A stretch of 32,000 nucleotides of DNA from Candidatus Velamenicoccus archaeovorus (GTDB lineage: Bacteria > Omnitrophota > Gorgyraeia > Velamenicoccales > Velamenicoccaceae), in contig NZ_CP019384.1 in assembly GCF_004102945.1 (NCBI RefSeq), forward strand, positions 810,001-842,000, given 5' to 3'. Position 1 is the stretch's first letter. Each line of letters starts with the position of its first letter. Shown one piece after another: positions 4,513 through 28,369 of this stretch. The translations under genes were made by a program, and so were the position numbers. A model generated the notes under the pieces. The model was not told where the DNA came from, did not search any database, and was given only the letters and a program-made list of their open reading frames with translations.

Positions 4513-6128
4513 TGTGTCCCCTTTCTTGACGCTAACGAACGGCCTTTCCAGAGATCCGGACACCGTTTTTTTTCTTTCAGGGTTTTCGTTTTCTGCTGAT
4601 GGACAAGCTGTTGTTTGAGGTCCCAGAGTTTTTTGCTCAACGACACATGATATCGGTGAGGATTGATGAGACGTCTGACGCCTGGGTCGAGTCTGTCGAT
4701 GTCGTTCTGACGGAGCCGGCGCATCTCTTCAAGGGTCGCTTGGCGGCGGATCCGCCGGCCGTTCTTCAGGATACCGGTCAATAGAGGTTCTATCTTGGAG
4801 ATGTTGCAGGCGCGGATTGTTTCCTGGATCTGTTCTTCTGTCGGGTGGTGCAGCAAAAGGGTATCTTCTTTGCGCGGATTTTCGTCTTGAAGGGCCACGC
4901 AGTCCGCGAAAGCCTTGCCTCTTGCGTCATAGATGCGCCAGACGGATTTGCCTCCGGGATTGATGATTTTTTCCGGCGTTTCCGAAAGCTTGATGGCGGC
5001 CTTCCAGCGCCTGCCGTCTTTGATCGCCGCCAGTTTATAGACGCCGTCGAGGGCCGGGTCTCCATACGATGTGACAAGCCGCGTACCTACTCCGTAGTTC
5101 AGGCGTGCGATGAGACGTTCCGGGTTGACGCCATAGGCACCGGCTTCCTGTCGGATCTGCGCGATGATTTGCCAGACGACCAGCTCATCCAGCTGGTTGG
5201 AAAGGACGATTGTCGTATCCGGAAATCCGGCCTCATCGAGCATCCTGGCGGACCGGATAGCCAGATAAGCCAGGTCTCCCGAATCCAGTCTGACTCCGAC
5301 GGGTTTGTGACCCTTCTTTTTAAGCTCATCGAAGACCTTGATGGCATTTGGTATGCCGCTTTTTAGCGTGTCGATGGTGTCGACCAGCAACAGACAGTCG
5401 TCGGGATAGATGCCTGCGTAAGCGCGAAATGCAGCCAGTTCTCCTCCTCCGCCATCCAGGGCCATAAATGCCTGGACCATGCTGTGGGCGTGGGTTCCTT
5501 TGGGCGGATATCCGAGGAGACAGGACGCCCCGGTGTTCGAGGAAAAATCAGCCCCTCCAATGAGGGCGGCGCGCGTGGCGGCATTGGCCCCTTTTCCTTG
5601 AGCCCTGCGCATGCCGAAGTCTATCATCGTCTGCCGGCATCCGGATTCTTTGATGCGGCAGGCCTTGGTTGCGACCAGTGTCTGGAAATTAATATGGTTT
5701 AAAAGGGATGATTCCAGCATTTGCGCTGCGGCCAGAGGTCCCTTGACGATGACGAGCGGGACGCCTGGATGGATGACTCGGCCTTCGGGGACCGCCGCGA
5801 TCGAGATATCTTCAAAGCCGCTTTTGTTTTTCAACCATGTCAGAAAATCGTCTGCAAAGAGCCGATGTCCCGACTTCCCTTTTTGGGCGCGTAGATATTG
5901 TAATTCTTCTTCGCCAAAGCGGGATTTTTCCATCCATTCCAGGAAGCTTTCGAGGCCCGCATGGATACAGTATCCCGCCCGGTGTTCGCCGTAATCGGGG
6001 TAATGGCGAAAAGAGTAATCGAACTGGGCCGTTTTTTTGTGGAGCCCCGTGCGATAGTAAAGCTGGGCCATGGTGAGTTGGTAAAAATCAGCAAATAAGA
6101 TGCCGTCGGCCACATGTTCTTTCTTCAT
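4509..6128 (-). CDS. pncB: nicotinate phosphoribosyltransferase
   Basis: 539-aa ORF. N-terminal [11 protein letters not shown] and central [14 protein letters not shown] are typical of NAPRTase. It carries a basic C-terminal tail of about 45 aa beyond the usual domain. Its stop overlaps the next start (ATGA). Confidence 0.9.
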
Positions 6129-6338
6129 TTTTTGCCTTATGTCTCTTTTGACCGCTTGGATGATTATTTCTGGAGCTGTTGCGCTGTTAGGATGATCGTT
6201 CGCCTGTCGGGATAGGTCCTTCTGACCTTGCTGGAGATTTGTATCTCTTCCAGACTGGGCATTTTTTCATCCAAGAAGACGGCATCGATTTTGGATGAAT
6301 TCCATGGCGTGTCGGCCGTTGGCGGCCTTCCAGGATGA

Positions 6339-7277
6339 TCAGTTGGCAAGATATTCGCGCCAGGTCCTTTCGAGTCCATACAGATCTTGGAAATAGTCGC
6401 CATAGACAGACTGGATGGCTTTGTCTATGGATTTGCCGTCGCGCAATTCGCGGCAAAACCTGGTAAACCGGTCTTGGCCATAGCGCCTTCTCATGAAATC
6501 CACCAGAGATGCGGATTGCAGATAAAAGGTGTTGATGAGTTGTTCCGGTGTCAGGATGAGGATGGCTGGTTCGTTGTCTTTTGTCCGGACTTTTTCCACG
6601 TAGCGGAATTGCCGGATTTTCGGTATCTCGAAATTTGAAATGTCGTCGATCGACAAAATAGCGTCCCGCGCATAAAGTTGCTTGGCGACCACCTGGATGA
6701 TCCGGTTTTTGTTTCCTGATGTCCACCATTGGGCGATGCCTTCGTCCAGCCATAAAGGGATGTCGTTTTCGAAGCCGACAAAATCGCGAAAGATCAGGTG
6801 GGCGATTTCATGCGGCAGGACGTTTTCTGTGAAGCTCTCGCTTCCTACATAGCTGGCAATGCAGCGGTTCTTGTAGTCCGCCAGGCCTTCTGTCCATTCC
6901 GGGCTGCTGGTGTTTCTGAGGTAATCCGGCTTGTCCGGGTAGAGGTAAATCTTGACACGGTTTTCCCATATCCAGAATTTGGAATAACGGGGATAGCCTA
7001 TGTCGTAAGCGATCGATTGGTAATACCGTTCGGCTTTGTCGGCGACCTTTTGTGCGAAACATTCCCCTTCCTGATAGAAGACGACAAAGTGATCGCTTTT
7101 GACCGTATGCCAAACTTGCGCGAGCGCCGGTTTTGCCGGCATGAACATACAAAAGAAGAAAAACGCAAGCCACGCGGTCCTTGGGATGCGGGTTAGGATG
7201 CTTTCGATGGTTTTTGGGGTGTTTTTGAGGGGATAAGAAAGGCATTGGGACATAAAAATATTATAACACGGTGTCAT
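6339..7277 (-). CDS. secreted peptidase MA-like (gluzincin) protein
   Basis: 312-aa ORF. Hydrophobic signal-like stretch AWLAFFFFCMFMPAKPALAQ. HExxH (LPHEIAHLIF) is followed by WLDEGIAQWW, the third-ligand Glu pattern of the Peptidase_MA_2-like family. Confidence 0.6.
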   Translation of the reverse strand: MTPCYNIFMSQCLSYPLKNTPKTIESILTRIPRTAWLAFFFFCMFMPAKPALAQVWHTVKSDHFVVFYQEGECFAQKVADKAERYYQSIAYDIGYPRYSKFWIWENRVKIYLYPDKPDYLRNTSSPEWTEGLADYKNRCIASYVGSESFTENVLPHEIAHLIFRDFVGFENDIPLWLDEGIAQWWTSGNKNRIIQVVAKQLYARDAILSIDDISNFEIPKIRQFRYVEKVRTKDNEPAILILTPEQLINTFYLQSASLVDFMRRRYGQDRFTRFCRELRDGKSIDKAIQSVYGDYFQDLYGLERTWREYLAN

Positions 7278-20330: not shown

Positions 20331-20402
20331 TCGAGCCGCAGAATGCGGCGAAGATTAGACCCTTCCTTTATGTAGAATGAGGAAGGTCTACCCTTTCTGG
20401 GT
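20331..20402 (+). repeat. 72-nt direct repeat copy 1 (three hairpins), written on the + strand
   Basis: tcga GCCGCA-gaa-TGCGGC gaagat TAGACCcTTCC-14 nt-GGAAGGTCTA CCC-tttct-GGGT. Near-identical to 20537..20607, including an identical first 43 nt. Confidence 0.85.
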
Positions 20403-20403
20403 A

Positions 20404-20481
20404 ACCCCGCAGAGTATCGGAAAAATTTAGTGCCCGGCAGCCCTGGGCGAGAAATTTTTACGATATCTTACGATACGGGGT
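20404..20481 (+). repeat. long imperfect hairpin X1 (homologous to 24122..24234)
   Basis: ACCCCG(caga)GTATCG GAAAAATTT ag tGCCCGG-cagcc-CTGGGC gag AAATTTTTAC ... CGATAC CGGGGT. The arms pair along almost the whole length. Confidence 0.7.
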
Positions 20482-20536: not shown

Positions 20537-20607
20537 TCGAGCCGCAGAATGCGGCGAAGATTAGACCCTTCCTTTATGTGGAATGCGGGGGTCTACCCTT
20601 TCCGGGT
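20537..20607 (+). repeat. direct repeat copy 2 (71 nt)
   Basis: Same as copy 1, except the distal stem is degraded (TAGACCC...GGGTCTA only) and the small-hairpin loop is tttcc instead of tttct. Confidence 0.85.
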
Positions 20608-20656
20608 TAGACCCTCCGTTTAGAGGAAGACGGAGGTCTACCCTTTCTGGGTTAGA
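20608..20656 (+). repeat. hairpin module with a different, complementary stem
   Basis: TAGACCcTCCGT-ttagaggaag-ACGGAGGTCTA CCC-tttct-GGGT TAGA. It has the same flanks as the other copies but stem TCCGT/ACGGA instead of TTCC/GGAA. Confidence 0.8.
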
Positions 20657-24098: not shown

Positions 24099-24121
24099 TA
24101 ACCCTGCCTCCGGCAGGGTTA
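24099..24121 (+). repeat. hairpin related to the ACCC-loop-GGGT modules
   Basis: TAACCCTGC-ctccg-GCAGGGTTA, directly followed by ACCCCG of X2. This is the same junction (GGGT(T)A-ACCCCG) seen at 20399..20409. Confidence 0.6.
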
Positions 24122-24234
24122 ACCCCGAAGCATAACTTGAAAATTTAGTTCTGCCCGTCTGAGCCTGGCCCGGGTTCCGGGCCGAGCGAAGACTGGGTGT
24201 AGAAGAAAATTTTCAAGTTGTCAATGCGAGGGGT
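24122..24234 (+). repeat. long imperfect hairpin X2 (about 50 bp rod)
   Basis: ACCCC gaa GCAT AACTTGAAAATTT ag TTCT GCCCGTCT gagcct GGCCCGG-gtt-CCGGGCC gagcga AGACtGGGT gt AGAA g AAATTTTCAAGTT gtca ATGC ga GGGGT. On the + strand it is followed by ccgTTTgTTTTTaTT. Confidence 0.7.
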
Positions 24235-26647: not shown

Positions 26648-27249
26648 ATGAGACCGAGGATATGAATGACCCAACCGACGATGGGCCAGACGATGATATT
26701 GAAGAGTCCTAAATATAATAACGCAAAGAGGATGATAAATCCATAGGGTTCTATCGCGGCGTAACGGATGGCGAGCGGCAGGGGCAATAACCCCATGACG
26801 ATGCGGGATCCGTCTAGGGGCGGAATGGGGACTAGATTGAAGACGGCGAGGATGACATTGACGAGGATGACATATCCGGCGATCTGCGCCGGGATCGTTT
26901 CGGAAACAACCCCTGATTTGACGACGAGCGTTGCCGCGAGCGCCAACAGGAGGTTGGCTGCGGGTCCGGCGAGGCCGACCCAGATGATATCTTTTTTCGG
27001 GTTTTTCAGCGCGGAAAAATCGATAGGGACTGGTTTGGCCCAGCCGAAAAGGACGGGCGACTTGACAGCGATCAAAAAGATGGGCAGGAGGATTGTGCCG
27101 AAAGGGTCGATATGGGCCAGCGGGTTGAGCGTCAGCCGTCCGCTCCTGGCAGCCGTCATGTCGCCGCGTTTATAGGCGACAAAGGCATGACTGAATTCAT
27201 GCACGACAATGGCTGAAAAAAAGACCAAAAGGGATATCAGGATACCCAT
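26644..27249 (-). CDS. site-2 protease family (M50) membrane metalloprotease
   Basis: HEFSHAF (HExxH) in the first TM segment, and a polytopic protein. ATG at 27249 (MGILISLL...) is preferred over the track's TTG at 27279. Confidence 0.75.
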   Translation of the reverse strand: MGILISLLVFFSAIVVHEFSHAFVAYKRGDMTAARSGRLTLNPLAHIDPFGTILLPIFLIAVKSPVLFGWAKPVPIDFSALKNPKKDIIWVGLAGPAANLLLALAATLVVKSGVVSETIPAQIAGYVILVNVILAVFNLVPIPPLDGSRIVMGLLPLPLAIRYAAIEPYGFIILFALLYLGLFNIIVWPIVGWVIHILGLI

Positions 27250-27309
27250 GTTATGGTGCTGGATTCTCTTGCGGGGCAAACAAGCCGGCGTGGCGCGTAT
27301 CCGGTCGTT

Positions 27310-27585
27310 TTACTTCTTCGCAGGGGCTTTTGCCTTCTGATCCGGAGCCGGGGTGGCGGCAGGCGCACCAGCTGCTGCAACGGCGCCTTCTTCGGCCGGT
27401 TTTTCAGCAGCTTTCTCTTTTTTGATCTTGATGCGAACGGCCTTGATCTTGGGCAGACCAAAAACTTTGCTGTCCTCTTTCCAGAGACCCTTGTTCATCA
27501 GGTACTTGATGCGTTCGGTCCTCTTGAGGACTGATTTAGCCTGTTTGCCTTTGACGGCCGCTCCCAGAGATGGATGGATAGACAT
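27310..27585 (-). CDS. small basic protein with Ala/Pro/Lys-rich tail
   Basis: 91-aa ORF. MSIHPSLGAAVKGKQAKSVLKRTERIKYLMNKGLW resembles the 'small basic protein' family of PVC-group bacteria (from memory, unverified). The tail is KEKAAEKPAEE...KAKAPAKK. RBS is AAGGAA. Confidence 0.65.
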   Translation of the reverse strand: MSIHPSLGAAVKGKQAKSVLKRTERIKYLMNKGLWKEDSKVFGLPKIKAVRIKIKKEKAAEKPAEEGAVAAAGAPAATPAPDQKAKAPAKK

Positions 27586-27602
27586 GTGATTTGGTTCCTT
27601 TA

Positions 27603-27693
27603 TAGACCCTGCGCTTATTCGGTATTACCTGGCTCAATCGGATGAGCCAGTATGCCACTTTCTGCGGCATGCGCAGGTCTGTCCTTTCTGGAC
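27603..27693 (+). repeat. hairpin module (long-loop variant) + small hairpin
   Basis: TAGACCcTGCGC-56 nt-GCGCAGGTCT GTCC-tttct-GGAC. The 56-nt insert contains CTGGCTCA-atcgga-TGAGCCAG and ATGCCaC-tttct-GcGGCAT. Confidence 0.8.
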
Positions 27694-27744
27694 TAGGCCC
27701 TGCGCTTATTCGGAATTGCGCAGGTCTGCCCCTTCTGGGCTAGA
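27694..27744 (+). repeat. hairpin module (short-loop variant) + small hairpin
   Basis: TAGGCCcTGCGC-ttattcggaatt-GCGCAGGTCT GCCC-cttct-GGGC TAGA. The final CTA (27740-42) is the TAG stop of the SPOR gene. On the + strand the module is followed by TTTTTTT. Confidence 0.8.
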
Positions 27745-28369
27745 TTTTTTTAATGAAACAATCAGAATATGTTTTCTTCAGTTCCTTTATCTTTCCCTGG
27801 GCCTCTTCCCTGCTGGAATAATTTCCCGCCAAGACGACGAGGTAGTTTCCCGACGGCCTGACAAAAGCCGTGAACCCTTTCTTTGCGAGTGTCTCCGACA
27901 GTCCCTTAGCAGCGCTCTCGTTCTTTAAAGACGCAACCTGGATGGCGTAGCCGCCTGTCGGCGCCTGTGTTTCTTTAACCGGTGCCGGCGCGGAAGCTAC
28001 AGCGGCTGCGGCGATCTGAATCTTTTGAGGTTCAGCGGCCGCATTCTCCGCTATGTTGCGATTCTCGCCTGTTGCCGGCAGGGCGACTTTTTCCGGGGCA
28101 GCAGGCAGCTGCGGTTCTTTGATTTCCCCTACAGCTTTTGCCGTGATCAGCTTGCCTTTTTCAACACCCAGCGTGAAACTGGCAATCAAAAGCATCAATA
28201 CGCAGATAAAAAGGATAATGATGCTCTGTGAGGAGAGCACAACATTGACCGATGAAGAATTTCTTGCCCCATCTTCTTTAATTCCAGAGAGATACGAATA
28301 ATCCGATTTGTCCTGTTTAGGAAAAACTTCGAATTCGATCTGCTCGCCCCTGGAATTTGTGTTTATCAT
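27740..28369 (-). CDS. SPOR domain (septal peptidoglycan-binding) membrane protein
   Basis: 209-aa ORF. One TM helix, an Ala/Pro linker, then the C-terminal SPOR pattern GGYAIQVASLKNESAAKGLSETLAKKGFTAFV...YLVVLAGNYSSREEAQ. Confidence 0.8.
   Translation of the reverse strand: MINTNSRGEQIEFEVFPKQDKSDYSYLSGIKEDGARNSSSVNVVLSSQSIIILFICVLMLLIASFTLGVEKGKLITAKAVGEIKEPQLPAAPEKVALPATGENRNIAENAAAEPQKIQIAAAAVASAPAPVKETQAPTGGYAIQVASLKNESAAKGLSETLAKKGFTAFVRPSGNYLVVLAGNYSSREEAQGKIKELKKTYSDCFIKKI

Follow-up and report, generated by a model that had tools for sequence, protein, structure and literature searches.

Hairpin modules between the SPOR-domain and sbp genes

The window analysed here comprises 32,000 nucleotides (nt) of the Candidatus Velamenicoccus archaeovorus genome (NZ_CP019384.1, positions 810,001 to 842,000), and its feature of interest is an array of hairpin modules at positions 27603-27743, between two genes read from the minus strand. 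On one side lies a gene for a SPOR-domain protein (27740-28369, from the list of open reading frames (ORFs); Pfam SPOR, E = 6.8e-17), and on the other lies sbp, the gene for a small basic protein (27310-27585; TIGR04137, E = 2e-18) that places the window in the Omnitrophota. The array fills the gap from the SPOR stop codon to the Shine-Dalgarno region of sbp. As originally predicted, the SPOR stop falls within the last unit: this TAG is the complement of 27740-27742 and overlaps both the final base of a small hairpin and the CTAG that marks the module border. At the opposite end, a 17-nt spacer with an AAGGAA Shine-Dalgarno-like motif, which together with the start codon (27583-27585) spans 27583-27602 on the minus strand, is the sole DNA separating the array from sbp.

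Read on the plus strand, the array consists of two units placed head-to-tail. Unit 1 is a long module of 91 nt (27603-27693; 52.3 bits with the covariance model described below). Its 5' arm runs through T, AGACC (27604-27608), a bulged C and TGCGC (27610-27614), 3' of which lies the loop TTATTCGGTATTACC; two inserted hairpins follow, TGGCTCA-ATCGGA-TGAGCCA (27630-27649) and ATGCCAC-TTTCT-GCGGCAT (27652-27670), then the 3' arm, formed by GCGCA (27671-27675) and GGTCT (27676-27680), and a small hairpin, GTCC-TTTCT-GGAC (27681-27693). The outer stem AGACC-c-TGCGC/GCGCA-GGTCT surrounds, in this way, a 44-nt sub-module of two hairpins. Unit 2 is a short module of 47 nt (27694-27740; 62.8 bits), which reads T-AGGCC-c-TGCGC-TTATTCGGAATT-GCGCA-GGTCT-GCCC-CTTCT-GGGC and is closed by a TAG at 27741-27743. 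The flanks, stems and small hairpins that the original prediction had assigned to two tandem units are all present in the sequence, as is the TTTCT-loop hairpin within the insertion of unit 1; the length of this insertion, put at 46 nt, has to be corrected to 44 nt, a length obtained by comparison with unit 2 and with the short module that a 98%-identical strain has at this position.

Both strands of the array region fold far better than shuffled sequences, the plus strand with z = -5.1 and the minus strand with z = -8.2 (-71.5 kcal/mol). No tRNA or tmRNA was found. Rfam 15 gave no match at the gathering score in the window, no match at E <= 10 over 27500-27850, and only chance-level matches at the 20.3-kb site described below.

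A multi-copy mosaic repeat with maintained stems

Units 1 and 2 represent the same module as three copies located near 20.3 kb. Across the window, five matches to the core pattern GGTCTNNCCYTTCYGG are present, all of them on the plus strand; chance would give 0.03. From a seed alignment of 29 short modules (A1) we built a covariance model (R1), whose hits were counted at E <= 1e-6; on the window it retrieved exactly these five copies and nothing further.

The copies outside the SPOR-sbp gap reveal the larger architecture to which the modules belong. In the spacer between TruD and an 84-amino-acid membrane-protein gene, a leader hairpin, GCCGCA-GAA-TGCGGC (20335-20349), precedes module M1 (20356-20402; 70.1 bits; 20335-20402 in all), and M1 is followed by a trailer, a long imperfect hairpin of the form AACCCCGCAG..AAATTT..AAATTT..GGGGT (20403-20481). 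A second leader hairpin then introduces modules M2 (20562-20607; 56.7 bits) and M3 (20608-20652; 66.7 bits), the whole spanning 20541-20652. A further copy, at 24102-24234 (repeat family D14), is free of modules: its leader CCCTGCC-TCC-GGCAGGG (24102-24118) is directly succeeded by a trailer (24120-24234). All of these elements are on the plus strand. The module-free copy lies immediately upstream of, and antisense to, a small minus-strand gene.

Taken over all loci compared (designated by L-numbers), the mosaic is ordered as a leader hairpin, n modules (n = 0-5) and a long trailer hairpin. The leader takes the form GCCGCA-GAA-TGCGGC or CCGCC-TCT-GGCGG, the former type also preceding arrays in L081, L004 and L110. 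The trailer has the general form TTAACYCCGCAG..AAATTT..AAATTT..GGGGT, with homologues in L058, L076, L110, L083, L014, L064, L114, L112 and L008. A module is 45-48 nt long and comprises a TAG, an imperfect palindrome of about 35 nt with a bulged C, and a 4-bp hairpin; in full, the order is TAG, A-N-C-C, the bulged C, a variable stem of 5 bp, a loop some 12 nt long in which a GG is nearly invariant, the second strand of the variable stem, G-G-N'-C-T and the small hairpin, the loop of which is YTTCY and typically TTTCT. A few module types are shared among loci and recombined in varying order, and the 44-nt sub-module is an optional component of the module loop. The sub-module of unit 1 recurs with compensatory changes in L112, L008, L049, L060, L117, L121 and L126; its pairs covary (e.g. 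GGCTC/GAGCC versus GACTC/GAGTC), and it is also found outside modules.

The covariation analysis proposed with the original prediction bears out the hairpins: the stems, including those of the small hairpins, keep their pairing through double substitutions. Pairing is retained in 97.8% of cells, 9 of the 14 pairs have changed on both sides, and none of 500 shuffles equalled the real alignment, figures that lean towards structure since the A1 seed was picked with a pairing filter; exact-pattern hits, for which pairing was not required, agree with the R1 seed on the structure. Even the seemingly constant flank covaries, as AGACC/GGTCT, AGGTC/GACCT, AGTCC/GGACT, AGCCC/GGGCT and AGGCC/GGCCT. As to the strand on which the structure might act, stem mismatches over 61 distinct copies amount to 10 G-U versus 8 A-C, and with this balance neither strand is favoured as RNA. 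A plus-strand function, suggested by the wobble pairs of M2 and M5, is not upheld by this family-wide balance.

Such symmetric pairing without a strand-specific wobble bias, the conserved flanking half-sites TAGACC/GGTCTA and the intergenic, tandem placement would also suit an array of protein-binding sites that works as DNA, with a topological or nucleoid-organising role between transcription units, by analogy with BIMEs, to which gyrase, IHF or DNA polymerase I bind. We consider this improbable: no binding protein is known, one copy of the repeat is coding in frame (see below), and the compensatory stem changes indicate intrastrand pairing rather than a fixed duplex recognition sequence. Similarly, the loops could recall a sponge of the CsrB/RsmZ kind, in which GGA motifs (UGUGGAAU, UUCGGAAU, AUCGGAUG) titrate a CsrA-type regulator; the GG of the main loop is at least 90% conserved and usually followed by A, and the loop of an inserted hairpin is AUCGGAUG. 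Dozens of dispersed, promoterless copies that are mostly antisense to genes hardly resemble such a regulator, however, the composition of the arrays is unstable between strains, and no Rfam match to CsrB, RsmY or RsmZ was obtained, so that this is the explanation to which we give the least credence.

The family is confined to one lineage. An exact-pattern scan of 185,579 species genomes yielded 114 loci, which is approximately the number expected by chance, but these loci are clustered: twelve fall in the metagenome-assembled genome (MAG) CAYYFL01 (labelled Planctomycetia), six in Omnitrophota DeMMO3_19, three each in UBA6210 and UBA1562, and single loci in four more Omnitrophota MAGs. R1 recognizes 68 copies in about 27 loci, originating from at least 8 MAGs labelled Omnitrophota or Omnitrophica and, in addition, from CAYYFL01. 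When applied to 96 control loci (674 kb), which include every non-Omnitrophota pattern match and 8 viral contigs, the model found no match except two orthologues of the 20.3-kb site. We therefore do not regard the bulk of the 114 pattern matches as family members, given their chance-level number and the control loci without a model match, and a phage origin was likewise discarded, none of the 8 pattern matches in viral contigs being matched by the covariance model. At least 7 contig ends of CAYYFL01 fall within arrays, as a result of assembler behaviour at multi-copy repeats.

CAYYFL01 is labelled "uncultured Planctomycetia bacterium", and its loci (L004, L008, L049, L058, L076, L081-L083, L091, L110 and L112) have leaders and module types in common with the window, including some that are identical. 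Probably the MAG was assigned to the wrong taxon, or the bin is mixed.

Insertion and remodelling at the SPOR|sbp junction

The adjacency of the SPOR and sbp genes is kept across the Omnitrophota. In about 17 distant relatives the gap is reduced to 3-6 nt and reads, on the module strand, CAT-N(3-6)-TTAGATTTTTTT, which corresponds to a TAA stop and Lys-Lys codons. The Shine-Dalgarno sequence of sbp is usually inside the end of the SPOR gene (L125-L204), and together with the 3-6-nt gap this implies translational coupling of the pair. Across 84 loci with an sbp relative, modules occur only in the closest ones, those with 83-98% nucleotide identity to the window, and there they differ in number and type: the spacer holds three short units at 98% identity (L001, L002), one long unit (L117, L118, L125) or two short units (L131) at 93-94%, and two short units (L127), a long plus a short unit (L121, L126) or one degenerate short unit (L122, with the same spacer in L123 and L124) at 83-87%. 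The 18-nt gap of L128 (1295-1314) includes the initial 12 nt of a module, TAGACCCTTCCG, left perhaps by a deletion or by an insertion that was aborted; the reverse complement of this fragment provides sbp with a GGAAGGG Shine-Dalgarno-like motif. Conservation among relatives, by which the original prediction was to be judged, thus gives a divided answer, as every close relative has the site filled and every distant one has it empty, and a conserved sbp leader is eliminated by the empty junction of the latter. We conclude that the array was inserted into a tight SPOR|sbp junction, beside TTAGA, and has been repeatedly remodelled since; TAG(A) is now found at both array borders.

A comparable turnover is visible at the other sites of the window. 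The window has three modules and a trailer at the TruD side; relatives whose neighbouring protein is identical possess one module there, together with an unrelated 80-nt insertion. At 24.1 kb the window is free of modules, and in L131 two are placed between leader and trailer. Both loci are polymorphic among relatives of 93-97% identity. The 80-nt segment, found in L205 (2100-2185) and at the equivalent position of L206, is GC-rich (ATCCCCGGCCCTGGCCGTAGGCC...GGGCGGAA), splits the leader hairpin and is absent from the window; it may be another small insertion element.

Within every array all units are head-to-tail on one strand, with 1-5 units each; about 19 arrays run antisense to the flanking ORFs, against 11 in the sense direction. 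Copies are almost all intergenic, and in either orientation they typically span exactly from a stop codon to the next Shine-Dalgarno region. The inclusion of the stop codon in a module, as in the window, is also observed at L006, L093, L084 and L082, the TAG or CTA of the border serving as the stop. One array departs from this placement: in Omnitrophica UBA1562 (DCOU01000136.1; L044:5668-5757), two modules are inserted in frame within the gene for formate-tetrahydrofolate ligase (FTHFS; ORF 5291-7075, minus strand), adding about 30 codons (PNPTGVGLPTPLKEGPNPERIDLPKPLKEGS). These extra residues fall between positions that are adjacent in solved structures (PDB 4ioj). A protein-database search with module-derived peptides gave no further coding insertions, which indicates that they are rare.

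These observations bear directly on the idea, raised with the original prediction, that the locus produces an independent or antisense plus-strand RNA of about 150 nt. Such an RNA would start from a promoter within the antisense of sbp and end at the last hairpin and the T7 run that follows it (27745-27751, plus strand). The last unit is indeed a hairpin followed by TTTTTTT, the plus strand folds well, and two G-U pairs in M2 and M5 fit this strand only. The prediction was also right that no plus-strand gene is present, though the T7 run does have a coding role on the other strand: there it reads AAAAAAA, the Lys-Lys codons of the SPOR C-terminus FIKKI*. This run is kept in relatives without any module, where TTAGATTTTTTT lies directly beside the sbp start. 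It is ancestral SPOR coding sequence, outside the repeat, and not a designed terminator tail; being older than the insertion, it makes of the apparent terminator a chance juxtaposition. In addition, the terminator scan made no call, the last hairpin (a stem of 4 bp with 3 more after a bulge) failing the simple terminator rule even with its T7, and no sigma-70-like site was detected on either strand over 27200-28000. The family-wide balance of G-U and A-C mismatches shows no excess for the plus strand, arrays at other loci have no following T runs, both orientations occur and one copy lies inside an ORF. A plus-strand small RNA is therefore very improbable.

The other possibility put forward at the outset, a 5'-untranslated or intercistronic structure on the minus-strand mRNA, fares better. 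Its position stands, together with the absence of a promoter-like site between the two genes; its status as a locus-specific regulator does not, the element being a dispersed repeat. A selected cis-acting RNA on the SPOR-sbp message, whether a stabiliser, an RNase processing site or a translational uncoupler that sets the SPOR:sbp ratio, would agree with the very stable minus-strand fold, with an array lying exactly between stop codon and Shine-Dalgarno region, and with a site that is filled in every relative of at least 83% identity. Outside CAYYFL01, moreover, arrays are mostly antisense to the flanking ORFs (about 17 versus 2 sense), so that the same strand is transcribed in most cases. At the orthologous position, the stems differ by a double substitution, TGCGC/GCGCA in the window versus TCCGC/GCGGA in L121, but this swap could equally be explained by gene conversion from the common TCCGC-type copies. 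Against selection for such a role, all more distant Omnitrophota do without the array, their two genes nearly abutting; unit number and type differ even between 98%-identical strains; modules occur in the opposite orientation and beside unrelated genes; and A-C mismatches are not above G-U, as selection on the complementary RNA would have made them. Repeats can be recruited, and a cis-acting role is compatible with a repeat origin; as the explanation of the locus we hold it to be unlikely.

We favour, with a probability of roughly 0.78, the interpretation that what lies at 27.6 kb is an inserted copy of a mosaic repeat, multi-copy and lineage-restricted, and not a dedicated small-RNA gene or gene-pair regulator. 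The repeat is multi-copy, restricted to one lineage and modular, maintains its hairpins, and occurs in both orientations and once as an in-frame coding copy; at the junction studied here it entered an ancestrally empty site, where its unit number and type vary rapidly. Changes in unit number would occur by slippage or unequal recombination among the tandem units. Spread to new sites would require a trans-acting nuclease or transposase that recognises the hairpin on single-stranded DNA, possibly through the conserved TAG, bulge and loops, by analogy with REP elements handled by RAYT enzymes. The reverse complement of the array is presumably co-transcribed with SPOR and sbp and would form very stable intercistronic hairpins, which could uncouple translation signals that once overlapped and may shield the upstream message against 3' exonucleases. 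Most likely, the array is a passive passenger that forms these hairpins between the cistrons of the minus-strand mRNA.

Several observations weigh against this interpretation. The loop and bulge bases (the GG of the main loop, TTTCT and the bulged C) are conserved between genomes, a pattern consistent with a specific binding partner. Among the 19 window ORFs scanned, none was identified as a transposase or RAYT-like gene. The copy number per genome corresponds to roughly one locus per 20-40 kb, a value obtained by extrapolation only. The orientation bias outside CAYYFL01 is strong, and CAYYFL01 and DeMMO3_19 both carry arrays at pth|rpsF and at ssb|rpsR, even though the proteins of these two genomes are only 74% (S6) and 70% (SSB) identical; this bias and the shared junctions could reflect a selected host function instead of passive spread. 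The arrays concerned are at L076:3365-3700 and 4560-4880, two near-identical composites of about 330 nt each, and at L064:1931-3618, where the rpsF|ssb junction is occupied too. On the gene strand, the leaders at pth|rpsF and ssb|rpsR include a Shine-Dalgarno-containing 5' region and a weak promoter-like box, on which promoter scans were inconsistent. A more speculative view, quite unlikely in our estimation, would see in the modules the recognition hairpins of a lineage-specific enzyme or binding protein (e.g. a domesticated HUH or RAYT-like nuclease or an RNA-binding protein), which together with leaders carrying gene-strand promoter-like and Shine-Dalgarno-like sequences would constitute a portable "punctuation" cassette that separates and re-drives cistrons at junctions such as pth|rpsF|ssb|rpsR and SPOR|sbp. 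A promoter belonging to the modules themselves, suggested by a TATAAT box in DeMMO3_19 leaders, was rejected, the scans yielding no consistent module-strand promoter.

Relation to known interspersed repeats

The best-supported class for this family is that of interspersed mosaic repeats such as REP/BIME, BOX, RIME and MIRU, within which it is previously undescribed. With REP/BIME it shares an imperfect GC-rich palindrome of about 35 nt with an extrahelical base, many copies in short and often intra-operon intergenic gaps, an NTAG 5' of the stem (GTAG in REP, YTAG here), mosaic arrays and compensatory hairpin changes. It differs from them in that the units are direct and not inverted or alternating as in REPIN/BIME, each unit has an extra small hairpin with a TTTCT loop, the host phylum is unlike the enterobacteria and pseudomonads, there is no sequence similarity and no RAYT gene is linked. 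A GTAG at the hairpin foot is not the rule either: TAG is found in at least 90% of copies, preceded by T, C or A. Because of the missing GTAG and the direct units, we file the repeat as a new family of this general kind and not as REP.

By architecture, on which alone the two were compared, the BOX elements of Streptococcus pneumoniae (boxA-boxBn-boxC) similarly consist of three parts, of which the central one, some 45 nt long, is present zero to several times; their unit number varies by strain at one locus, their location is intergenic and their predicted folds are stable. Their host and sequence are unrelated, and in the Omnitrophota the trailer may precede the leader and the sub-module may nest in a module loop. 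MIRUs of Mycobacterium and RIMEs of Sinorhizobium likewise form tandem units of 40-100 nt in operon gaps, with the upstream stop codon embedded and a strain-variable copy number, and RIMEs are also palindrome mosaics. However, the small ORFs of MIRUs overlap both stop and start codons, whereas here only the stop is included and a 17-nt spacer precedes the sbp ATG, and MIRUs have one orientation relative to transcription whereas the Omnitrophota repeat has both. The in-frame array in FTHFS is reminiscent of Rickettsia palindromic elements (RPE), although coding insertion is the rule for RPE-1 and apparently the exception here, with one case. Other types of array were excluded: the would-be "spacers" of a CRISPR would be self-complementary and of few shared types; GTTAGAC at some unit borders recalls integron attC sites, but the units abut without cassettes and no integrase gene is nearby; and ToxI-type antitoxin repeats are ruled out by architecture and context.

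To our knowledge, interspersed mosaic repeats have been characterised almost solely in cultivated Proteobacteria, Firmicutes and Actinobacteria. Omnitrophota are known almost entirely from metagenomes, and a full-text literature search found no paper linking Omnitrophota or Omnitrophica with REP or hairpin repeats; this is apparently the first such family described for the phylum. In practical terms, the repeat breaks assemblies and can mimic small-RNA genes or riboswitch-like leaders, and its variable unit number offers loci for strain typing. It has separated two genes that elsewhere in the phylum have overlapping translation signals. The active turnover of the repeat in these small genomes implies a mobilising enzyme, which would be worth finding.

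Three minor observations complete the description. In the Deltaproteobacteria MAG CP_BE_BS_27, two contigs (L063:7700-7830 and L109:5830-5960) have a near-identical stretch of about 190 nt in common that contains the search pattern and no full module (about 21 bits), and that represents an unrelated repeat or a duplicated gene end. The 45-nt modules (e.g. 20608-20652 in the window) can be read without a stop in one frame of the complementary strand (NPERVDLRLPLNGGS and the like), and this frame runs on through tandem copies; 47-nt modules are without it. Finally, a good sigma-70-like site, TTGACA-17-TAGACT (10/12 matches), lies on the minus strand at 20319-20291, outside the repeat and between the 20.3-kb element and the 84-amino-acid membrane-protein gene, and it is conserved in L205 and L206.

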